From Escherichia coli (GTDB lineage Bacteria; Pseudomonadota; Gammaproteobacteria; Enterobacterales; Enterobacteriaceae), in assembly GCF_003334785.1 (NCBI RefSeq), contig NZ_QOWV01000008.1: a stretch of DNA of 64,000 nt. One strand, written 5' to 3'. Positions 40,617 to 53,172 of the stretch are shown in pieces. How positions within the stretch are numbered: position 1 is the stretch's first letter; each line of letters opens with the position of its first letter. The notes under the pieces are model-generated. The model did no database searches. It had not been told where the DNA came from and saw nothing but the letters and a program-made list of their open reading frames with translations. Position numbers and translations under genes: made by a program.

Positions 40617-41249
40617 TCTTCTGAATCACCGGGCGAAAAAATATAACTGAGTTACAAATAAGTACCAGTCGAATGAGTATTGTATTAAGAATTTTTGAGT
40701 ATCGCTGATACAACCAGAAAGCAATGCTAGCGCAATATTATAGGGCCAGCAATTGAGATTATTAGTAAAAGCATGTTAAGAATTAATTACCGAATTTATA
40801 TATTAATTATAGTAAGGCAATGAGCTATTTTTGATAGTAAAAATAAAACAAGTTGATTTGATATATTAAATGAACAAATTAATCTTGATGGCAGTCTGAT
40901 TATTGGTGAAGTTTATAGTCAGTTTTTTTCGCCAGCGGTTAAAGAAATAGAATAGTCGTATAAAAAAGGGTGTTCTGGGGCGAGTAAAACAACATCTTCA
41001 CCTTAATGGCGATACAGTTGGCTGAGAGTCAGCAGGGGGGCAAATCACCTGCAAATAAACACGGCGCATACTGGCGTGAATATCGCGGATGCGTTCGAGG
41101 ACAGAAGAACCGACAGGCGGATTCTTCAGCCGCTCATCGTCCATCACAAAACCTTAGACCAGGTATTCCTGAAGCCGATTGAATATTGAGCAGTAGAAAA
41201 TATCTGGATTGACAGTATTACAAGGGGTTGGAGAACGTCAGGAGAGGCA

Positions 41250-41273
41250 TTTTGGCGGAAGATCACAGGAGTC
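41250..41273. repeat. Distal att repeat: 24-bp direct copy of the selC 3' end
   Basis: ttttggcggaagatcacaggagtc is identical to 53075..53098. Confidence 0.7.
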
Positions 41274-41401
41274 AAAATTGACATATAACAATTTGATTCC
41301 AATCGTTTATATTTATCAGCTCTAATTCATTTATACACATCCTTATACACATAATATCTGTCGATTAATTTTTACACGTATCTTCACGCACGTTAACTCA
41401 G

Positions 41402-41695
41402 GAAAAAAATTTTTTTTCGAAAGAACTGTTCACACTGTTCACCTTTCTGTTTTCTCCTTTTATTTCAGTTTGATAGGTGGTGAATAATGGGTGAAGGGTG
41501 AACATTCGATTCTTCACCTCCGGCATTCTGCCGGTGTGACTTGTGCAGGGGATTAATCCTCCGCACTGAAATCACACAGGGAGAAAAAAGTTTTTTTGAT
41601 TTGATTGTTCATCTTTCGTTTTTCTCTTTTAATTTCAGTGTGATAACGGGTGAATATACGGTGAAGGGTGAACAGTGGATTGTTCACTTTCGGGG
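41402..41695. repeat. crr-like region: two imperfect ~120-bp direct repeats with TGTTCAC motifs
   Basis: Units at about 41402..41522 and 41579..41695 share tgttcac / gggtgaa / ggtgaagggtgaaca blocks. Confidence 0.6.
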
Positions 41696-41703
41696 AATTC
41701 AGG

Positions 41704-41731
41704 GATAAAAAAAGACCGGCAGATGCCGGTC
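41704..41731 (-). terminator. Rho-independent terminator after alpha
   Basis: gaccggcagatgccggtc hairpin with U-run on the minus strand. Confidence 0.6.
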
Positions 41732-41738
41732 AGATGAG

Positions 41739-44072
41739 TCAGGCTGTTGCAGGGTCGTCACATTTCGGCAGCCAGTCGCCGTAGCTTTCCTCTTTCAGCG
41801 TCAGGTTGGTCTGTATCCCCTGTTTGGTATGGCGCTTCTCGTAATTCAGTCCGTATTCCTTCAGCATCACCGGCAGCCCCAGCCCGAACATTTTCAGACT
41901 GAGTACATTCCGGTAGCCGTTTGCCTCCATGTAGGCCAGATAGGCGTGATAGAGGTATTTACGGTAATTACGCGGGATGATACTGGCGTTCCCCATATAC
42001 ATGCCGCTGGTCTGCGGCAGGGTTTCCAGATAGCCGATAAAATCAAACGTCGGGTCGGCATCCCGTTTGATGTTCAGTGCCTCGTCTGAGTTCTGCTGGG
42101 ACTGAAGCAGTGACCGGGCGAGCATCGGGTCGCTGAACTTCTGCATCAGGTAACGCACGATGACCGCCAGCTCGCGGGTGATTTTGTCCTTAAGCTGCGG
42201 GTCGCGCTCCTGCGGGGCTATCTGTTCCGGGAAGTGAATAATCACCCGCCGGCGTGACACGCCGCCGCTGCGGTCGGTGAAGCGCATCGGGTTATTGTTC
42301 ACGGCCAGAATCACCGCCGGGATGTGCGTGGAGTACGCATCCCGGTATTTCGGGTCAACGGACACCGCATCGCCGCCGGTGATGGCCTTGAGTCCGGCAC
42401 CGTCGCCGCTCCATTTTTCCTGGTCCGGCAGGCGTATCAGTGAGAAGCCAGTTAACGCGGCACGTTCACGCGGGGATTCCAGCGTCTCGATGGTGGCCGA
42501 CGTGGCGTTATCCTCACCGGCCAGCAGGGTGGCTATTTCGGCCATGATACTTTTGCCGCTGCCGCCGGGACCGGTCACCTCCAGAAAGAGCTGCCAGTCG
42601 TAGCGGTTTGCCAGCACCATAAACAGTGCGGCCAGAATCACGTCGCGTTTTTCCGCACGGCCACCGGCGGCACGGTCAAGCCAGCGCCAGAATGCGGGGG
42701 CGTGGGTTTCCAGCGTTTCACCTTCCACCGGCGGGGTGAAATCCACATCGCACAGGGCGCGCATCCAGTGTGACGGACTGTGCGGGTGGAACGTGCCGTT
42801 CTGCGTGTCGAGCACGCCGTTACGAAAGCCAATCAGGCGGCGGGAGGGGGCTTCCTGCTGCGGAATAATCAGCTTCAGGGTGTCCACCACGGAGGCCACC
42901 TTCCCGGAGGAGAACGGCGCGCGCAGACGCTGAAACAGCCCGGCCACATCCCGGGCAAAGTCCTGTGGTGGCAGCACCTTCCAGACACCATTTTCATAGC
43001 GGGACAGAAGCTGGCCGTTGGCATCGACCGCGAGCGCCTCGCCGTAATGCTCATAGATACGCATGGCCTTTTCGCTGGTACTCATGGCGGAAAACTCCGC
43101 TTCGCTCATGGTGTCGAACGGGCTTTCAGCCGGTGGCCGGATGGCATCATAAATGGCCTTACGGGTGGTTTCCCCGCCGTACTGCGTGAAGGCATCATTC
43201 CAGTCACCGAAGACCGGCGGCAGGGCAACAACGCCCTCACACGCATCTGCGGCTGCGGCGGCTTTTTTCTGGCCGTCACCGCTGAGGTCACGGTCTGCGG
43301 CAAGGACAATCTGACAGGCCGGATGCTTCTGCCGGGCAAGGCTGGCCAGAGAAAGGAGGTTCACGGAAGAAAGCGCCACCATCACCGTTTCACCGGTCAG
43401 GTGATGTACGGTAAGTGCGGTCGCGTATCCCTCCGCTATCCACAGACGTTTTCCGGCCTGATTCTGTCCTTCAAGGGTGTGACAGGTGCCCCTGACCTGT
43501 CCGCCTTTCAGGGTGCGCTTACGGCCGTCAGCACTGATTAACTGAAGGTTAACCAGTTCGCCGCTGTCGTCATACAGTGGCACCACAAGGTCACCGGCGC
43601 GCCAGCTCACGCCACCGGCTCTGTGTGTGCCGGTCAGCATCCGGCATTCCCGGCCGGGAAAGCCCTTGCGGGTCAGGTAGGCGTTACCGGTTCCGGGACG
43701 GGTTTTCGCCATCAGGGTTTGTGCCAGTGCGGCGGCGTTCTTCCGGGCGGCTTCTGTTTCAGCACCGGCGGCGGCCGTCACTGCCGGGTCAGCCGGGGGC
43801 AGGCAGCCGGTCACGGCAGCCACCTTTGCGGCCGCGTCGGACGGGGAAACACCAAACACCTTTTCAACCAGTTTCAGGCCGTCACCGGCACCACACTGAT
43901 TGCAGTACCAGGTGCCGCGCCCCTCCCTGTCATCAAAACGGAAACGGTCACTTCCGCCACAGACCGGACAGGGCTGATGACGGTTTTTCAGCACCTGAAT
44001 CCCCAGCGACGGGAGAATACGCGGCCAGTGGCCGAGCGCATGGCTGACGGTGGCGGTTACGTTCATTTTCAT
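41739..44072 (-). CDS. P4 alpha-type primase-helicase
   Basis: 777-aa ORF; N-terminal zinc-ribbon CPVCGG..CNQCG, Walker A GPGGSGKS. Confidence 0.9.
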   Translation of the reverse strand: MKMNVTATVSHALGHWPRILPSLGIQVLKNRHQPCPVCGGSDRFRFDDREGRGTWYCNQCGAGDGLKLVEKVFGVSPSDAAAKVAAVTGCLPPADPAVTAAAGAETEAARKNAAALAQTLMAKTRPGTGNAYLTRKGFPGRECRMLTGTHRAGGVSWRAGDLVVPLYDDSGELVNLQLISADGRKRTLKGGQVRGTCHTLEGQNQAGKRLWIAEGYATALTVHHLTGETVMVALSSVNLLSLASLARQKHPACQIVLAADRDLSGDGQKKAAAAADACEGVVALPPVFGDWNDAFTQYGGETTRKAIYDAIRPPAESPFDTMSEAEFSAMSTSEKAMRIYEHYGEALAVDANGQLLSRYENGVWKVLPPQDFARDVAGLFQRLRAPFSSGKVASVVDTLKLIIPQQEAPSRRLIGFRNGVLDTQNGTFHPHSPSHWMRALCDVDFTPPVEGETLETHAPAFWRWLDRAAGGRAEKRDVILAALFMVLANRYDWQLFLEVTGPGGSGKSIMAEIATLLAGEDNATSATIETLESPRERAALTGFSLIRLPDQEKWSGDGAGLKAITGGDAVSVDPKYRDAYSTHIPAVILAVNNNPMRFTDRSGGVSRRRVIIHFPEQIAPQERDPQLKDKITRELAVIVRYLMQKFSDPMLARSLLQSQQNSDEALNIKRDADPTFDFIGYLETLPQTSGMYMGNASIIPRNYRKYLYHAYLAYMEANGYRNVLSLKMFGLGLPVMLKEYGLNYEKRHTKQGIQTNLTLKEESYGDWLPKCDDPATA

Positions 44073-44086
44073 GGTGTTGTTCTCCT

Positions 44087-44407
44087 TCAGTGCAGTACCG
44101 GCGCTTTTATGTGACGGGCACAGAGTTCATCCATCACAACCAGCCCGAGAAAGGACAGCGACGGCGCGGCCTTCAGGGGGCCGGATTCCATTAAATCTTC
44201 CAGCAGGGCACAGGCTATCTGACGCCCTTTTTCCTCACCGTGCTGGCGCAGATAAAAGCCTTCCAGCTCAGCGGCGATGGCCGCCTCCAGTGACTCAAGG
44301 GTGAGATGCGGGTAGCGGTGCTGACGTTCGCACACGGTCAGCCAGGCACAGGCGACAGCGCGACGGTAAAGGGCAGCGCGTAAGACGGGCGGTAAGGGGG
44401 TTTTCAT
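44087..44407 (-). CDS. Hypothetical protein, P4 left-operon position (orf106-like)
   Basis: 106-aa ORF immediately upstream of alpha, same strand. Confidence 0.5.
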
Positions 44408-44542
44408 TTGTTTTCCTCCCTGTGACAGATGACTGCATTCCGTGCCGGTTGCATTAACTGATAAGGCATATCTGCGTCTCCTGAAGACGTGCGTATCCCT
44501 GCGCGAATACGCACATTTAATTTTTCGGGTGTCGTTTTTTAA

Positions 44543-44998
44543 TTACAGATAATTGCGGTAACTGTTATCCGGGGTGATTTCCGGGTCAGGCTCCGTGCGG
44601 GGAATTTCCCGCCATTCCCGCGCCACCGGTGCCGCCCGGCTGACCGGAACAGGGTCCTGCGGGTAAATATCCAGATATTTCTCCCGCCATTTCTGTAATT
44701 CCGGGTCTCCGGCCATTTCTTTCAGTACCGCATGCCGGTTTACGGGGCTGCGTTTAAACAGGTCAGGACGGTCACAGGTAAATTCCCGCAGAAAACGCCC
44801 CAGCGGGATGTCTGTGGTGCGCCCGTCGGCGATGATACGCACAAGGATACTGAATTTACGGCGGTACGGGTTCCAGACAATTTCCGGGCAGCGGTACGGC
44901 ATTTCCCACGGAATACCGTCTTCCAGAATGCCGACCACGGCCACATCGGGAAAACCGGCAGAACGGTAAATCTCACCGGGCTGGGGAAAATCAAACAT
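44543..44998 (-). CDS. Hypothetical protein, P4 left-operon position (orf151-like)
   Basis: 151-aa ORF co-oriented with alpha. Confidence 0.5.
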   Translation of the reverse strand: MFDFPQPGEIYRSAGFPDVAVVGILEDGIPWEMPYRCPEIVWNPYRRKFSILVRIIADGRTTDIPLGRFLREFTCDRPDLFKRSPVNRHAVLKEMAGDPELQKWREKYLDIYPQDPVPVSRAAPVAREWREIPRTEPDPEITPDNSYRNYL

Positions 44999-45857
44999 GC
45001 GTCCTGTCTCCCCGGTCTTTCTGCTGGGCGAGAAAATCGCGGCACAGGCCTTTGGCTTTCAGCTCATTCAGCACAAAATCAATATCTTCATTCAGGTAAC
45101 TGAAAATATGCGGAATGTAGAGCTGATGCAGGCCGGAGAGTTCACGGTGAATCAAATCACCCCCAACAAACTGGGATACGGCGCTGGCGCGGTTGAGCTT
45201 ATGGTAAGCCTCAATGCTGAGGTGTTCACGGGCGTCATGACGCGCTGAGACGGTCTGAGGGGCTTTTTTATTACGCACGGGACACCTCCACCACCGGCAG
45301 ACGGGCAGCAAGGGAGAGCACATAGTCACGGACAAGGGAACGGCGGGCGCTGCGTTCATCACCGGCGACGGTGCGAAGCATACAGATACGGGGATGACGG
45401 TCTGTGCGACGGACAGCCGCAAACACAAAGACAAATTCAGGGTGTGAGGGGGTAAGGGTTGTAGCCATGATGGCAGCCTCCTGTGAATAGCAAATAACGC
45501 TATCGCCGGAGTTCTCACGCTCGATGGCGATAGCCCAGACGGGGGTGAGAATACCGGCTTCACAGGATACCGGCCAGCCCGGAGGCTGCCCCGCCTGAGC
45601 TACCATTGACTCAGAGGCATAACATGCGATTGCGAACAGGATCATACCTGCACGGCAAACCACACGCCACACCATAATCTGGTGCTCTGTGGCGTTGATT
45701 GCGACACAAAAAAAGACGCATGGCGCGTCATATGTCGCCTGTGAATTGCTCGGGTTCTCACGCCCGGCTGCCGATTTTGCGGCAGCGGAAAAACTATATC
45801 CGCAAATGCCGGAAAAAGGCAAGCCAGAAAAAGGGAGTTTTTGCAGAGCGGGCATCA

Positions 45858-46124
45858 TCATGCGTCGTACCCCCGTTTGCGTCCGGCAATGCGTCCGGCC
45901 ATCCATGCGGTGACTTCAGAGTGCAGCCAGGCCACATTTTTACCGCCAAGACTCACCTGCGGCGGAAATTCCCCCTTACGGATGAGTTCGTAGATGGTCG
46001 AGCGTGACAGGCCGCACAGGTGCATCACTTCCGGAAGACGTAAAAAACGCTCCTGTGTGATGTCCGGCAGCGGCATCAGTGGCGTCACAGGGGCGGGAGA
46101 CGGGGAAGAAAAAACAGCTTGCAT
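45858..46124 (-). CDS. AlpA/Vis-family small DNA-binding regulator
   Basis: 88-aa ORF with HTH-like [16 protein letters not shown]. Confidence 0.65.
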
Positions 46125-46403
46125 CGGGCTACCTCGTTAATGTCCATACAGCACCGGATAAGTCCGTCCGGCTTCAGGTAGCGCTTTATTTTGTGAATAT
46201 TTTCAGCAGACGCAACAGGGGGGATTTGTTCCGGCAGCCTTACAATGCTTGTGTATTTTTTGTTCATCTCCACTTAAAGTCATTTAAAGCCACTTAAAGC
46301 AATTCGTAATTTTTATAGTGAAATACAAATCGTTTTTTCTTATTCATTCCCGGCGAATTAATAAAAACAAACAGTAATAAACAGCACAAAAAGCCCATCA
46401 ACG

Positions 46404-46508
46404 GGTGAACAGTGGTGAACAGACGGTGAACAGTCATTACTGCGATTGTTCACCCTTTAACTTACTGTATTACTTATCTTTTTTCTTATGGTGAACAGAG
46501 GTGAACAG
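46404..46508. repeat. ori-like iteron cluster (GGTGAACAG octamer copies)
   Basis: Five direct copies of ggtgaacag plus one inverted ttgttcacc within about 105 bp, between divergent vis and sid. Confidence 0.6.
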
Positions 46509-46676
46509 TAAAATATAAAAAAACAAACAGTAAGCCGGTTTTTCCTACGACCTTTTCCTGGCTTGCCGGTGTGAGGATGAGTCTCCTGTGTCAGGGCTGG
46601 CACATCTGCAATGCGTCGTGTTGTTGTCCGGTGTACGTCACAATTTTCTTAACCTGAAGTGACGAGGAGCCGGAAA

Positions 46677-47411
46677 ATGTCTGACAACACCATCCCTGAA
46701 TATCTGCAACCCGCACTGGCACAACTGGAAAAGGCCAGAGCCGCCCACCTTGAGAACGCCCGACTGATGGATGAGACCGTCACGGCCATTGAACGGGCAG
46801 AGCAGGAAAAAAATGCGCTGGCGCAGGCCGACGGAAATGACGCTGATGACTGGCGCACAGCCTTTCGTGCAGCCGGTGGTGTCCTGAGCGACGAGCTGAA
46901 ACAGCGCCACATTGAGCGCGTGGCACGCCGGGAGCTGGTACAGGAATATGACAATCTGGCCGTGGTGCTGAATTTTGAACGTGAACGCCTGAAAGGGGCG
47001 TGTGACAGCACGGCTACCGCCTACCGGAAGGCACATCATCACCTTCTGAGTCTGTATGCAGAGCATGAGCTGGAACACGCCCTGAATGAAACCTGTGAGG
47101 CGCTTGTCCGGGCAATGCATCTGAGCATTCTGGTACAGGAAAATCCGATCGCCAACACCACCGGCCATCAGGGCTACGTCGCACCCGATAAGGCTGTCAT
47201 GCAGCAGGTGAAATCATCGCTGGAACAGAAAATTAAACAGATGCAAATCAGCCTCAGCGGCGAGCCGGTTCTCCGGCTGACCGGACTGTCAGCGGCAACA
47301 CTTCCGCACATGGATTATGAGGTGGCAGGCACACCGGCACAGCGCAAGGTGTGGCAGGACAAAATAGACCAGCAGGGAGCAGAGCTTAAGGCCAGAGGAC
47401 TGCTGTCATGA
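46677..47411 (+). CDS. P4 Sid-like capsid size-determination scaffold
   Basis: ORF 46659..47411; ATG at 46677 preceded by gaggag RBS; 244 aa, coiled-coil-rich. Confidence 0.8.
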   Translation: MSDNTIPEYLQPALAQLEKARAAHLENARLMDETVTAIERAEQEKNALAQADGNDADDWRTAFRAAGGVLSDELKQRHIERVARRELVQEYDNLAVVLNFERERLKGACDSTATAYRKAHHHLLSLYAEHELEHALNETCEALVRAMHLSILVQENPIANTTGHQGYVAPDKAVMQQVKSSLEQKIKQMQISLSGEPVLRLTGLSAATLPHMDYEVAGTPAQRKVWQDKIDQQGAELKARGLLS

Positions 47412-47908
47412 TTTACTGCCCGTCGTGTGGACATGTTGCTCACACCCGCCGCGCACATTTTATGGACGATGGCACCAAGATAATGATTGCACAGTGCCGG
47501 AATATTTATTGCTCTGCGACATTTGAAGCGAGTGAAAGCTTTTTCTCTGACAGTAAAGATTCAGGAATGGAATACATTTCAGGCAAACAGAGATACCGCG
47601 ATTCACTGACGTCAGCCTCCGGTAGCATGAAGCGCCCGAAAAGAATGCTTGTTACCGGATATTGTTGTCGGAGATGTAAAGGCCTTGCACTGTCAAGAAC
47701 ATCGCGGCGTCTGTCTCAGGAAGTCACCGAGCGTTTTTATGTGTGCACGGATCCGGGCTGTGGTCTGGTGTTTAAAACGCTTCAGACCATCAACCGCTTC
47801 ATTGTCCGCCCGGTCACGCCGGACGAACTGGCAGAAAGCCTGCATGAAAAACAGGAACTGCCGCCAGTACGCTTAAAAACACAATCATATTCGCTGCGTC
47901 TGGAATGA
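47408..47908 (+). CDS. P4 Delta-like late transactivator (tandem Ogr-type zinc finger)
   Basis: 166-aa ORF with two CxxC..CxxC blocks (CPSCGH..CRNIYC and CRRCKG..CTDPGC). Confidence 0.8.
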   Translation: MIYCPSCGHVAHTRRAHFMDDGTKIMIAQCRNIYCSATFEASESFFSDSKDSGMEYISGKQRYRDSLTSASGSMKRPKRMLVTGYCCRRCKGLALSRTSRRLSQEVTERFYVCTDPGCGLVFKTLQTINRFIVRPVTPDELAESLHEKQELPPVRLKTQSYSLRLE

Positions 47909-47981
47909 GGGCTGCCGGTTAACACCGGCCGTCGCCGCACACCGTATTTTTATTCTTCAGCATGATGAGAAAGAGATAACG

Positions 47982-48554
47982 ATGGAAAGCACAGCCTTAC
48001 AGCAGGCCTTTGACACCTGTCAGAATAACAAAGCAGCATGGCTGCAACGCAAAAATGAGCTGGCTGCGGCCGAACAGGAATATCTGCGGCTTCTGTCAGG
48101 AGAAGGCAGAAACGTCAGTCGCCTGGACGAATTACGCAATATTATCGAAGTCAGAAAATGGCAGGTGAATCAGGCCGCCGGTCGTTATATTCGTTCGCAT
48201 GAAGCCGTTCAGCACATCAGCATCCGCGACCGGCTGAATGATTTTATGCAGCAGCACGGCACAGCACTGGCGGCGGCACTGGCACCGGAGCTGATGGGCT
48301 ACAGTGAGCTGACGGCCATTGCCCGAAACTGTGCCATACAGCGTGCCACAGATGCCCTGCGTGAAGCCCTTCTGTCCTGGCTTGCGAAGGGTGAAAAAAT
48401 TAATTATTCCGCACAGGATAGCGACATTTTAACGGCCATTGGATTCAGACCTGACGCGGCTTCGGTGGATGACAGCCGTGAAAAATTCACCCCTGCGCAG
48501 AACATGATTTTTTCGCGTAAAAGTGCGCAACTGGCATCACGTCAGTCTGTGTAA
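47982..48554 (+). CDS. P4 Psu-like polarity suppression / capsid decoration protein
   Basis: 190-aa ORF following delta. Confidence 0.8.
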   Translation: MESTALQQAFDTCQNNKAAWLQRKNELAAAEQEYLRLLSGEGRNVSRLDELRNIIEVRKWQVNQAAGRYIRSHEAVQHISIRDRLNDFMQQHGTALAAALAPELMGYSELTAIARNCAIQRATDALREALLSWLAKGEKINYSAQDSDILTAIGFRPDAASVDDSREKFTPAQNMIFSRKSAQLASRQSV

Positions 48555-48718
48555 AATTCCCCGAAAATCCGCCCGTTTTTACTGAAAAAAGCCATGCATC
48601 GATAAGGTGCATGGCTTTGCATGCGTTTTCCTGCCTCATTTTCTGCAGATCGCGCCACGCCCGGCGTGGCCTGAGCGTGTCAGCGCAACTGCATTAAAAC
48701 CATCCCACAAAGCGGGCG

Positions 48719-48737
48719 GGCGAGGCGGGGAAAGCAC
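48719..48737. other. cos site (P2/P4-type 19-nt cohesive end sequence)
   Basis: ggcgaggcggggaaagcac. Confidence 0.6.
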
Positions 48738-48979
48738 TGCGCGCTTACTTAGATGCGTGAATTTATTTATATCACTGAAGTATATCCCTAAGCTCATTTC
48801 TCAAAGGGCCTATGGTTGCACAAGGTTGTACCATGGCATTCAAAACTTTTTAAACCAAGAATGACAATTTCATTATTAGGCCGGAATAGTTACTAATTTT
48901 AGTATAGGTTGCGATTGTTTAACGCATTTTTTATTATGATGCAGATTTTATTATTACTAATGGGGTGCAAAAAACACGT

Positions 48980-50269
48980 ATGAAAAAAAATGTTGGTAAC
49001 CGCAATAAAAATTCTGATGTGCTTATTCTTAAAGGTATGTTGAACAATTTAAAAGATGGTTTAAATAATTTTGAATTATTGCTTAAATTGCAGTTTAAAA
49101 TATTGGTGTGCGTGATGAGATGTGAGCGGAAAATTAAGTTTCTTAAAAAGAATAATGCTCATTTAAGGTCGGTGTTAAAAAAATCAAGACTTCCAAAAGA
49201 AAAATCTCTGGCAGTAAAAGAAAAAATTAAATACAATTCTGAAGTAATTACTGCTGAAAAATTCAAGATATATACGTATAAAATGTTTGGCGATGCTGTT
49301 GCATTTTTATACATCGATAAATATACAATTAAACAGTTATACTACAATGTACATAATTACAATGTTAAAGAAACGTCGGGGGATTTGAGCGGTAAGTCTG
49401 GATTGCGAGAGGAATGGGAATGCGTAAAACTTGCATGTGATAATAAAGTTCCAGCTCTGTTGCATGATATTACAATGAGTATAAGGCATGGAGATGTATC
49501 ACTTTTAGGTAAAGATGAGCCATTTATTATTGAGATGAAATCAAGCTCAAATACAAATAAGAGAGTTGAGCGGCAAAAATCTAACCTTGAAAAATTAGGA
49601 AGTTTCATAGCAAAAGACGAAGCTGAAAATTTTCGAGGGATTCCATTGTTAATCAGGAAAAATTTGTTAACTGAAGAGGAATCATATTCTCAGGTTTTAA
49701 ATGAGTGTCTTAATGATTGTCGCAGCAAAGGAATGGCTTTGGTTGAAGCTGAAAAAGGATTTTATATCTGCGCAGTTAGAGAAGGGAATATGGCTTCTAT
49801 GCTAGAAAATATAGATTTTGATGAAAAAAAAGAAGTTTTTCCTGTATTTCTCAATCAATATAAAAATAATGGGGAGTGGCTACCATTAACACCATTTACA
49901 CTATTAATTAACGATCCTTACGATCTCCATGATTTTATCGAAGGGGAATTAACAATAGCTTGTTTTTTAATGCTCGATGAATACAAAAAAATTGCTATAG
50001 AACTAGGCTATGAATTAGTTTTTGTTTCTAATGATGAATATAGTATCTTGTTAAAAAGAATTGGTGAAGATATTATATTTGGTGTTTCCTGGCAAATGTT
50101 GTTAAGAGTTCCATTAGAGATGATGTCCATGTCATGGTTGATAAAAGAAAGTATTAATATATATAGTAACTCCCTAGAAAATAGCACCCATAATGATGAA
50201 TTAAATCAGGGGCAGGGAAATACTAAAAATTCATTATTCGAAAAATACAAGAATTTATTTTCTTACTAA
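48980..50269 (+). CDS. Hypothetical protein in satellite variable region; PD-(D/E)xK-like signature
   Basis: ORF 48965..50269 (GTG) or ATG at 48980; AT-rich; motif HGDVSLLGKDEPFIIEMK. Confidence 0.6.
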   Translation: MKKNVGNRNKNSDVLILKGMLNNLKDGLNNFELLLKLQFKILVCVMRCERKIKFLKKNNAHLRSVLKKSRLPKEKSLAVKEKIKYNSEVITAEKFKIYTYKMFGDAVAFLYIDKYTIKQLYYNVHNYNVKETSGDLSGKSGLREEWECVKLACDNKVPALLHDITMSIRHGDVSLLGKDEPFIIEMKSSSNTNKRVERQKSNLEKLGSFIAKDEAENFRGIPLLIRKNLLTEEESYSQVLNECLNDCRSKGMALVEAEKGFYICAVREGNMASMLENIDFDEKKEVFPVFLNQYKNNGEWLPLTPFTLLINDPYDLHDFIEGELTIACFLMLDEYKKIAIELGYELVFVSNDEYSILLKRIGEDIIFGVSWQMLLRVPLEMMSMSWLIKESINIYSNSLENSTHNDELNQGQGNTKNSLFEKYKNLFSY

Positions 50270-50301
50270 TTAAGCATTGTAATTATATTTGATTTTTTCT
50301 A

Positions 50302-50335
50302 CAGGCTTGGACGGAATCATATAGCTCCAAGCCTG
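50302..50335. terminator. Hairpin between the two convergent cargo ORFs
   Basis: Perfect 10-bp stem caggcttgga..tccaagcctg with 14-nt loop. Confidence 0.45.
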
Positions 50336-50370
50336 TTGTGTCGGTATCAAAAAGAAAGTGATATTATTGT

Positions 50371-51744
50371 TTATCTAATATATTTTGTTACTTCCATATT
50401 ATCTTCATCGTCAAAAGAGTACTCAACCATCATACGACTATTTTTACCTGACTTAATATCTTGAAGCCAAGCTGAGGCAACCCTAGGGTCTAAATGCTGT
50501 TTTCTACTCAGCTCATTATTTTTTAGCCTATCAAGCCTTATTGCTCTTTGAAGAGTTTTATCGATGTAGTCTTCCAAATCAATGGACAACCTCCTTTTTG
50601 GATATAAATATTGGTATTCATCACACAATAGTACTCCTGGTAATTTAATTTCGCGTAGGTCGAAAGAATACCAACTATAGTTTTTAGACTCATTAGCTAA
50701 TTCCGAAACTAGATGAGCCCCATTTTGTTGTAAGAGAGATATTTTGTGATCGATGCTAATGTCAGATATTTCTCTTAAAGACTCAAAATGCATGTTTTCG
50801 TAGATAGTATTTAATAAAATACTCTCCATGTAAGAGTAAAAATCAGTACCATCGATGATAATATTAGTTTCATTGTAGACTGCAAGAGACATAAGATATA
50901 TGAAGAAAACTGCGGGAGTACTATTACCTCTGTTTATATCAAGTCTAAGGGAGTTGACATAATCAGGCGGAGAGTTTGAGAAAATTTCTCTTATTAACCA
51001 GTCTGGAATAGTGGTTCTTGTTAGAATGTCAGCGTTCAAACTTGAACGACATAAAAAAATACACATCTTTAATTTTAATTTTATTGAAAATGATGGGAAT
51101 AAATGATCGATGAAAGATAAAATACATGTATACTCTGCTAAGTCTGTTTGTTGCAACTTTTCTTTTATTTCATTTTCAAGCATTTTTAATTTAAAAAAAT
51201 CATTCCTTTTTTCTAATATTTCCCAATGAAATAATTGCTCCTGAGCGTACGCATGCCCCTCTAAAATAGCTAGCATGCTTAAAGGAATGTTTAGGATTTC
51301 TTGATAATTATTAACATACCCAAAGAAATGGACTCTGATATACACACCCATATCGTCATCATATTGTAATGATGCTTTAATATTTTTATAATTTAATTTA
51401 TTAGTGCTGTTGTTTTTGAAGTGATAATGTAAAGTAATTTCAGTATCATCAACTAATAAATTATCAAAAGCCTCCTTTGTTTCATATTTAAAATAGTTAT
51501 ATAGCCGACATGAATAATTTAACCCCCAGTGAGTTGTAGAACAATCAAGTAAATGGATTGTTTCATGGAGATATGTTTTATAAAATTCAATTTCGCTATC
51601 ATCAAAATCATATATGCTTTTACTGTCTATGATATTTTGTGCTTGCGGTAAACTTATATTTAATTCATCGTTTGAAATCTCAATTAAATGTGATGAAAAA
51701 TCATAAGAACCCAATGTTTTGCTGTTAAATATACATCCGCTCAT
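50371..51744 (-). CDS. Hypothetical protein with HEXXH zinc-metallopeptidase motif, translationally coupled to int
   Basis: 457-aa AT-rich ORF; YLHETIHLLD at residues 58..67; start overlaps int stop as ATGA; agggga RBS. Confidence 0.65.
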   Translation of the reverse strand: MSGCIFNSKTLGSYDFSSHLIEISNDELNISLPQAQNIIDSKSIYDFDDSEIEFYKTYLHETIHLLDCSTTHWGLNYSCRLYNYFKYETKEAFDNLLVDDTEITLHYHFKNNSTNKLNYKNIKASLQYDDDMGVYIRVHFFGYVNNYQEILNIPLSMLAILEGHAYAQEQLFHWEILEKRNDFFKLKMLENEIKEKLQQTDLAEYTCILSFIDHLFPSFSIKLKLKMCIFLCRSSLNADILTRTTIPDWLIREIFSNSPPDYVNSLRLDINRGNSTPAVFFIYLMSLAVYNETNIIIDGTDFYSYMESILLNTIYENMHFESLREISDISIDHKISLLQQNGAHLVSELANESKNYSWYSFDLREIKLPGVLLCDEYQYLYPKRRLSIDLEDYIDKTLQRAIRLDRLKNNELSRKQHLDPRVASAWLQDIKSGKNSRMMVEYSFDDEDNMEVTKYIR

Positions 51745-52916
51745 AGCAAATCCCCTAAAAGATAATCAGAGTACCATTGAATCATCGTTTTCCTTTGAGA
51801 AAAATATTGTGCGTGATTATAGGTTCCTCGGATATTGTTCTTATCAACATGTGCTAATTGCATTTCAATCCAGGTACTATCAAATCCCTGTTCATGTAGG
51901 ATTGTTGACATTGTATGTCTAAAACCGTGACCTGTAGCACGTCCTTTGTAACCAAGTAACTCAATCACTTGTGAAACACTTTCTTTTGAAATTGGTTTGC
52001 TACGATTGTTCCTGCCAATAAAAATATAGGGATAATGGCCGGTGATAGGCTTTAGCTGTTTAAAGAGGTCTACCACCTGAGTAGACAAAGGTACAATATG
52101 TGGTCTGCGCATTTTCATACGTTCCGCTGGTATCTCCCATATACCTTTTTCGAGGTCTACTTCTTCCCACGTAGCAAAGCGCATCTCCTGCGTTCTTACA
52201 CCAGTCAGCATGACTATCTTCGTAGCATTTTTGGTGATGATGCTACCGGTATAAGCTTCGAGATCCCGAATAAAATGAGGCAATTCTTCGGCAGATAGAA
52301 ATGGATGATGTTTTTGCTTAGGAACGGCCAGAGCGATGGCTAAATCAGGCGCAGGATTGTATTCAGCGCGGCCAGTTATGATTGCGTAGCGATAAACCTC
52401 ACCGCACCTCTGACGTACCTTACGTGTTTTCTCTAGTGCTCCACGCTTCTCTATTCGTCGCAACACTTCAAGAAGTTCTAAGGGTTTGATTTCACTAATA
52501 GGACGTTTACCAATGAACGGGAAAACATCTTGCTCAAATGTTTTAATAATTTCTTCGCGGTAGGCAAGTGTCCAGCGATCGGCTTTATTTGAGTGCCACT
52601 CACGACATATAGCCTCGAATGAGTTTTCTGTTGAGAGCTGCTGTGCCAGCTTTTGGGCTTTACGTTCTTCCACTGGGTCTATGCCGTTTGCAACCTGCTT
52701 CCGAGCTGTATCGCGTTTCTCACGTGCTTCAGCTAGGCTCACAAGGTCGTAGCTACCAAATGACATTAACCGCGCTTTTCCGGCAAAGCGGAAACGGAAA
52801 CGCCAGCCCTTCGAGCCATCGGGATTGATAAGCAATGACAGGCCCTGCCCGTCGTTCAATGTGTATGGCTTGTCTTGGGGCTTTGCTCGTTTGATTTGTA
52901 TATCTGTAAGTGCCAT
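51741..52916 (-). CDS. int: P4-type tyrosine integrase
   Basis: 391-aa ORF with C-terminal catalytic-type residues (GHGFRHT.., ..NHAQY); adjacent to tRNA 3' end. Confidence 0.9.
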   Translation of the reverse strand: MALTDIQIKRAKPQDKPYTLNDGQGLSLLINPDGSKGWRFRFRFAGKARLMSFGSYDLVSLAEAREKRDTARKQVANGIDPVEERKAQKLAQQLSTENSFEAICREWHSNKADRWTLAYREEIIKTFEQDVFPFIGKRPISEIKPLELLEVLRRIEKRGALEKTRKVRQRCGEVYRYAIITGRAEYNPAPDLAIALAVPKQKHHPFLSAEELPHFIRDLEAYTGSIITKNATKIVMLTGVRTQEMRFATWEEVDLEKGIWEIPAERMKMRRPHIVPLSTQVVDLFKQLKPITGHYPYIFIGRNNRSKPISKESVSQVIELLGYKGRATGHGFRHTMSTILHEQGFDSTWIEMQLAHVDKNNIRGTYNHAQYFSQRKTMIQWYSDYLLGDLL

Positions 52917-53077
52917 GTGTATAAGCCAAAAATATGTATAAAAAATCTATACACATCACTATACATATTTTTCATGGATTCAGGGAGATCTTGTCGGACG
53001 GTTACGGATGAGTGATTTACTATATGTTTTGAAAATAAAGGATTTTTAGACTCTCTCGGATGGTGACGGAAGAATTT

Positions 53078-53172
53078 TGGCGGAAGATCACAGGAGTCGA
53101 ACCTGCCCGGGACCGCTGGCGGCCCCAACTGGATTTGAAGTCCAGCCGCCTCACCGGAGACGACGATCTTCC
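53078..53172 (-). tRNA. selC: tRNA-Sec (selenocysteine)
   Basis: Minus strand reads GGAAGATCGTCGTCTCCGGTGAGGCGGCTGGACTTCAAATCCAGTTGGGGCCGCCAGCGGTCCCGGGCAGGTTCGACTCCTGTGATCTTCCGCCA. Confidence 0.85.

Follow-up and report, generated by a model that had tools for sequence, protein, structure and literature searches.

The segment between psu/cos and the integrase gene (int) of P4 satellites has been described as a defence hotspot (Rousset et al. 2022, PMC9122126), and 'Bandua', a P4 system with a NERD protein, was described in a 2026 preprint (doi 10.64898/2026.02.27.708500). NERD nucleases and Shedu (SduA, DUF4263) are built around a PD-(D/E)xK nuclease, either as a single protein or as the core of the system, carry extra non-catalytic domains and occur in defence hotspots. 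Hjc (PF01870; PDB 1hh1, 4tkk), an archaeal Holliday-junction resolvase, is a dimer of single-domain subunits of ~140 amino acids (aa) that resolves four-way junctions and has an active site of related layout. In P2, the slot between gpA and the portal gene Q carries Old, an OLD-family ATPase/Toprim nuclease, and Tin. Here we analyse a locus in 64,000 nucleotides (nt) of Escherichia coli DNA (assembly GCF_003334785.1, contig NZ_QOWV01000008.1; the whole stretch is called the window below), where two adjacent genes, A and B, occupy the cargo slot of a P4-like satellite. The family that gene A represents is new and has no name, but its kind is familiar, that of probable nucleases carried as cargo in the defence hotspots of phages and satellites. 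Our reading, to which we assign a probability of roughly 0.6, is that it encodes a self-contained Mg2+-dependent PD-(D/E)xK DNA endonuclease carried by the satellite as anti-phage cargo.

The A/B locus corresponds to P4 hotspot system 32, which is catalogued with 48 occurrences and without annotation (Rousset et al. 2022, PMC9122126, Table S1). In that study systems 32 and 37 have neither a Pfam entry nor a comment, and both lie outside the tested set. Protein 1 of system 37 proved to be a homologue of the gene A protein (33% identical, E 2e-40); system 37 pairs this nuclease with a 72-aa protein, whereas system 32 pairs gene A with gene B. The accession numbers of the A and B proteins appear in no searchable main text.

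An earlier note, based on reading the sequence alone, had assigned to gene A a restriction-endonuclease-fold motif of the form hydrophobic-D ... hydrophobic-E-x-K. The motif, HGDVSLLGKDEPFIIEMK, lies where the note had placed it, at residues 170-187 when counted from the ATG start codon or 175-192 from an upstream GTG (nt 49487-49540); its hydrophobic-D element does not hold in the strict sense, because the sequence there reads G-D-V. Such a motif in a single sequence proves little, since its regular expression also matches 15% of composition-preserving shuffles of the gene A protein. It gains weight from the invariance of E145, D172, E185 and K187 across the family. In an alignment of 137 full-length homologues, the majority of which share 24-35% identity with the gene A protein, all four residues were kept in 137/137 sequences, and the only seven invariant columns were D105, G141, E145, D172, E185, K187 and Q199. 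A further set of residues (D163, T165, R169, G171, R195 and R198) was conserved in >90% of the homologues, and Q38 and E49, located in a helical hairpin near the N terminus, were nearly invariant.

The arrangement of these residues is that of a PD-(D/E)xK catalytic set, with a glutamate in helix 1, an aspartate at the start of strand 2 and (D/E)-x-K in strand 3. It could be proposed that the nuclease-like core is nevertheless catalytically dead and that the protein acts by binding only, for example as a decoy or scaffold. However, dead PD-(D/E)xK domains normally lose the catalytic-type residues, and here every homologue retains all four; we therefore consider this reading extremely improbable.

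The family is large and poorly covered by curated models. A word-indexed search found only 12 relatives. Searching 1.84 billion cluster representatives with a profile recovered 989 representatives at E ≤ 1e-3, of which 426 remained at E ≤ 1e-30; almost every one is ~400 aa long and aligns over its full length. The gene A protein has no match in Pfam or NCBIfam; none of the 137 homologues matched a Pfam family at E ≤ 0.001, and the isolated nuclease domain gave no significant one. PADLOC-DB v2.0.0 (5027 models) returned zero families for either A or B at E ≤ 1, the PHROGs search with gene A returned only its own family 14906 (function unknown), and tblastn against GenBank phages gave no match. 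Searching PDB sequences with full-length profiles of gene A yielded coiled-coil noise only.

An AlphaFold2 model built from the 137 sequences reached a mean predicted local distance difference test score (pLDDT) of 94.1 and a predicted template modelling score (pTM) of 0.92. A first run with 12 sequences had been rejected because the motif region was poorly modelled (pLDDT <50 for residues 116-141 and also 163-181). In the accepted model the chain is predicted to fold into three units: a helical hairpin at the N terminus, a PD-(D/E)xK core and an alpha/beta domain at the C terminus (Table 1). The predicted core begins with a helix carrying E145 (residues 141-154), followed by a strand at 159-161, a second strand directly after D172 (173-175) and a third that runs into E185-x-K187 (182-184); a helix containing Q199 (194-212) and strands at 214-218 and 221-225 complete it. 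Judged by secondary-structure order only, this is the alpha-beta-beta-beta-alpha-beta topology of the superfamily.

The isolated core also pointed to a possible relationship with a structurally characterized nuclease. A profile of residues 96-232, built from 44 sequences, was compared with PDB sequences at E ≤ 10, and the only two matches were Sulfolobus Hjc resolvases (E 1.1), in which E12/D42/E55/K57 align in register with E145/D172/E185/K187. The earlier note had proposed a profile–profile search as a check on the nuclease assignment, and hhalign placed the core against an Hjc alignment in this same register with 89% probability (E 2.3e-6, 83 columns). Controls with a reversed template and with 20 column-shuffled templates reached ≤2% probability. 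The Hjc alignment was of low diversity, its homologue search having returned only close Sulfolobales sequences. Beyond the E...D...E-x-K tetrad and the order of secondary structure, the two proteins share a G-x-x-x-E start of helix 1 and a strand of the form hhhE-h-KS (h, hydrophobic). In contrast to the small archaeal enzyme, the gene A protein is bacterial, borne by mobile genetic elements and ~430 aa long, with the helical hairpin and a C-terminal domain of ~170 aa added to the core. At its own threshold the Pfam Hjc model did not match, the best value for any family member being E 0.022. The gene A protein is thus Hjc-like at its active site and lies outside the Hjc family.

Foldseek searches of AFDB50 with the gene A model gave 120 matches at E ≤ 1e-3. 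The top matches listed were full-length homologues (template modelling score up to 0.98) from Proteobacteria, Bacteroidota, Deinococcus, Clostridium and others, and a few homologues in the AlphaFold database bore the automatic names 'NERD domain-containing', 'Nuclease' or 'DUF4263 domain-containing', all of which point to the same superfamily. The invariant tetrad, the modelled order of secondary structure, the profile–profile match to Hjc and these automatic names together support the nuclease fold suggested by the earlier note. We conclude that the gene A protein is very probably an active PD-(D/E)xK nuclease of a family that lacks a curated model.

The likeness to Hjc also bears on what kind of nuclease this would be. 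Gene A might encode a constitutive restriction-type enzyme, either Type IV (modification-dependent) or structure-specific, which would attack phage DNA directly while its C-terminal domain reads modified bases or DNA shape. Consistent with this, the nuclease stands alone with no methyltransferase nearby, its closest detectable relative is a structure-specific enzyme, and nuclease or restriction cargo is common in P4 slots. However, searches with the C-terminal part revealed no domain known to read modified bases or to bind DNA, and the data fit an activated abortive mechanism equally well. We regard the restriction-type reading as possible, though on the unlikely side.

Outside the core, the helical hairpin was modelled with pLDDT >95 and has a basic tip (KKSRLPKEK in the gene A protein); whole-chain fold searches with the model matched only coiled-coil or helical proteins. 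The C-terminal domain contains conserved residues of its own (E258, G260, N292, P305, F319, R376, E380 and S383), and its profile found no PDB sequence even at E ≤ 10. That it might be a duplicate of the nuclease core was considered and rejected on comparison. We view it as a candidate sensing or oligomerization domain.

By overall plan the gene A protein resembles Shedu and the NERD nucleases. Nevertheless, it has no match to Pfam DUF4263, Pfam NERD or the PADLOC Shedu models, its nuclease is central rather than C-terminal, and its hairpin and C-terminal domain are unlike those of SduA. Judged by model matches, then, it is neither Shedu nor NERD nor Hjc. With Old and Tin of P2, the family shares the gpA–Q slot; the sequences are unrelated.

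Gene A lies between psu/cos and int and is variable among otherwise similar elements, as is characteristic of P4 hotspot cargo. Of 5426 complete E. coli genomes, 2244 contain DNA matching the flanks of the slot, and only 10 carry the A/B cargo. Elsewhere, family members (29-52% identity) were found between gpA and portal gene Q at five P2-like loci; a P2-like prophage of Citrobacter carries nothing but the homologue between gpA and the portal gene. When the open reading frames (ORFs) neighbouring 22 loci were clustered, the recurring ones were P2 frame genes (gpA, portal and terminase; 5 loci), P4 frame genes (4 loci) and an ORF of 72 codons confined to one subclade, which is that of Rousset system 37; no partner gene was conserved across the family. 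Other members adjoin a prophage integrase, occupy the edge of a conjugative element or, at one further locus, lie among integrases, toxin–antitoxin genes and a DruA-domain gene. The nuclease gene is therefore the constant element across P4 satellites, P2 phages, other prophages and a conjugative element. The earlier note had read the gene as stand-alone cargo that would fit a role in defence. Its cargo status agrees with the known P4 hotspot in which it lies, and its independence with homologues that occur without gene B; the hotspot position likewise favours a defence function, which we infer.

The pair formed by the nuclease and the 72-aa ORF directly downstream of it was observed at four loci, one in a P2-type gpA–Q slot (L023:6001-7533) and three in P4-type psu–int slots (L024:6001-7495, L025:5818-7312 and L026:6001-7495). 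The nucleases of L023 and L024 share 63% identity, and their 72-aa proteins are roughly 80% identical by eye. That this subclade occurs in both P2 and P4 slots runs counter to the near-absence of P2–P4 cargo exchange that has been reported. In a Serratia fonticola P2-like prophage, a homologue of gene A shares the gpA–Q slot with a 456-aa protein (L002:9771-11141) for which Pfam records no domain and PADLOC gave no match, making it another unannotated hotspot gene. It was examined as a possible relative of gene B and rejected, being unrelated in sequence.

The distribution of the family could also be read as that of a gene serving the mobile element itself, either by resolving or processing intermediates of replication or recombination, or by acting as a selfish nuclease of the homing type. 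Family members are always on mobile elements, and the likeness to a Holliday-junction resolvase would suit such a role. Against this, only 10 of the 2244 flank-matching genomes carry gene A, which is therefore not needed for the P4 life cycle; the same slots are filled by many unrelated cargo sets; the protein, at ~400 aa and with two extra conserved domains, is unlike minimal resolvases; and gene A lies neither within nor beside a conserved target gene. We judge a role in the life of the element to be very unlikely.

The limits of gene A itself agree with those given in the earlier note. An ORF of 429 codons is supported by the ORF list, by RefSeq and by PHROG 14906. The note had left the start codon open between GTG 48965 (ORF 48965-50269, + strand, 434 aa) and the in-frame ATG 48980. 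We consider the ATG the better start because RefSeq annotates the 429-aa form, the PHROG 14906 profile has 429 positions and matches residues 4-428, and the starts of homologues lie no more than a few residues away from this codon. The gene had been described as lying about 240 bp past cos, behind an AT-rich promoter-like stretch and with a Lys/Asn-rich N terminus. The distance from cos to the ATG is 243 nt, the leader contains two sigma-70-like sites, which are consensus matches only, and the first 60 residues include 11 Lys and 10 Asn (35%, vs 19% protein-wide). Compared with a 74%-identical homologue, gene A has a ratio of nonsynonymous to synonymous substitution rates (dN/dS) of 0.12, indicating that it is a real gene under strong purifying selection.

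Table 1. Positions of the features of gene A, its neighbour and the P4-like satellite, numbered from the first letter of the window.
Feature	Position	Strand	Details
Gene A	48980-50269	+	429 aa from ATG; RefSeq WP_000742539.1
N-terminal antiparallel helical hairpin (predicted)	49016-49312	+	residues 13-111; helices 13-26, 31-68, 73-111; Lys/Asn-rich
PD-(D/E)xK core (predicted)	49400-49657	+	residues 141-226
Key codons of the core		+	E145 49412-49414; D172 49493-49495; E185-M-K187 49532-49540 (K187 49538-49540); Q199 49574-49576
C-terminal alpha/beta domain (predicted)	49673-50179	+	residues ~232-400; confident in the AlphaFold2 model
AT-rich leader of gene A	48861-48937	+	two sigma-70-like matches, 48861-48890 and 48909-48937
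Gene B	50371-51744	-	457 aa, WP_001406847.1; convergent to A
Inverted repeat between A and B	50301-50336		perfect 11-bp repeat, 14-nt loop; -19.8 kcal/mol, z = -3.1
att repeat 1	41244-41276		33-nt direct repeat, 91% identical to its partner
Sid-like protein gene	46659-47411		right arm of the satellite, first in order
Delta gene	47408-47908		right arm, second
Psu gene	47982-48554		right arm, third
cos	48719-48737	+	19-nt cohesive-end sequence GGCGAGGCGGGGAAAGCAC; marks the start of the variable cargo slot
int	51741-52916	-	P4-type tyrosine integrase; far border of the cargo slot
att repeat 2	53069-53101		33 nt; overlaps the 3′ end of tRNA-SeC
tRNA-SeC	53078-53172	-	

Gene B, the neighbour of gene A, matches no model in Pfam, PADLOC or NCBIfam. 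Its product has an invariant HExxH motif (H60, E61, H64) followed by D67, and an invariant LEGHAYAQE at residues 161-169, motifs that suggest a zincin-like metallopeptidase. The two genes do not form an operon, since they are convergent and separated by a hairpin. The inverted repeat between them is a possible transcription stop and has no clear U-tract on either strand.

One alternative to a self-contained nuclease is that A and B make up a single two-gene system, in which the HExxH protein would act as sensor, activator or antitoxin for the nuclease, or the reverse. The two genes are always listed together in P4 system 32, purifying selection on both is strong (dN/dS 0.08 for B), and in another P4-like satellite their adjacency and arrangement are kept although the proteins have diverged to 74% (A) and 73% (B) identity. 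However, the start of gene B overlaps the stop of int by 4 nt (51741-51744) instead of being joined to gene A, and each gene is found without the other. The A family occurs without B in P2 hotspots, once as the sole gene, and at 20 other loci, and the Serratia neighbour of an A homologue is not a B protein. Conversely, B homologues (34-35% identity) stand alone in an integron-like cassette array of Vibrio parahaemolyticus (L006-L008) and beside a Tn7-like element in Idiomarina (L009). Gene B is most likely a separate cargo module, and a two-gene system appears unlikely to us; a functional link of any kind between A and B is doubtful.

The satellite that carries both genes spans 41244-53101 (~11.86 kb) and is inserted at the 3′ end of tRNA-SeC, the selC tRNA gene. 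Its right arm runs from the Sid-like, Delta and Psu genes through A and B, the two genes without database annotation, to the integrase gene. The start of the cargo slot is marked by the 19-mer given in Table 1, which we take to be the P2/P4 cohesive end and which has one exact match in the window and zero in shuffled sequence. Alignment of the linear P4 reference record, whose right end falls at 48718, confirmed the position of cos independently. The two cargo genes have a GC content of only 0.29-0.36, compared with 0.51-0.56 for the P4 core. At the end of the satellite opposite int, adjoining the 3′ end of the primase/helicase gene, there are two 88-nt direct repeats (41436-41523 and 41606-41693; 81% identical) rich in TGTTCACC-like octamers, which resemble the ori/crr iterons of P4. 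Just beyond the att repeat, RefSeq annotates a rhuM pseudogene fragment at about 41013-41174 (L001:1414-1575), which may be the remnant of an earlier island at selC.

According to our model, the gene A protein would cut DNA in a metal-dependent manner, and its nuclease would be gated by the C-terminal domain, by the basic-tipped hairpin, or by both. The gating cue would be an infection signal or a form of DNA, such as free ends, modified DNA or, as for Hjc, branched replication and recombination intermediates. Cutting of phage DNA, or of host DNA in an abortive response, would then block phage multiplication, and the block would protect the lysogen and hence the satellite. Location, conservation, fold assignment and independence of a partner were computed; nuclease and anti-phage activity we infer. 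The argument for defence is that the family occupies two independent hotspots, is patchily distributed and falls under a favourable published base rate, six of eight randomly chosen unannotated P4 hotspot loci having protected against phages (2026 preprint, doi 10.64898/2026.02.27.708500).

Several points weigh against this reading. In the literature searched we found no experiment on the gene A protein or on any family member, and neither Rousset 2022 nor the 2026 P2/P4 preprint nor DefensePredictor includes the locus among the systems synthesized or tested. The protein matches no Pfam, NCBIfam or PADLOC model, and the link to Hjc stands at a profile–profile probability of 89%, not >95%, and depends on an Hjc alignment of little diversity. 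The A–B adjacency retained in a second P4-like element makes a functional link with gene B possible. The trigger, the substrate and the roles given to the hairpin and the C-terminal domain are guesses.

A more specific form of the defence proposal, which we consider quite unlikely, is that gene A is the founding member of an unnamed single-protein immune family. Here, an Hjc-like junction nuclease with a hairpin arm and a C-terminal sensor would recognize branched DNA formed in phage replication or recombination, in place of a sequence or a modification. Such a family would span Proteobacteria, Bacteroidota, Deinococcota and Firmicutes and would thus be widespread. If true, structure-sensing immunity would be carried interchangeably by P2 phages and P4 satellites.

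What this analysis adds to the catalogued locus is the assignment of a nuclease active site, a high-confidence model with three predicted domains and the constancy of the nuclease gene over its neighbour. Because of the active-site assignment, the model and this constancy, the locus can be tested directly as a single gene. The hotspots of P2 and P4 have been a repeated source of new immune systems, and most of the unannotated loci tested so far were protective. If gene A proves protective as well, it would bring into bacterial immunity a sizeable family, about 1000 clusters when grouped at 50% identity, which is overlooked by the tools now used to annotate defence genes.

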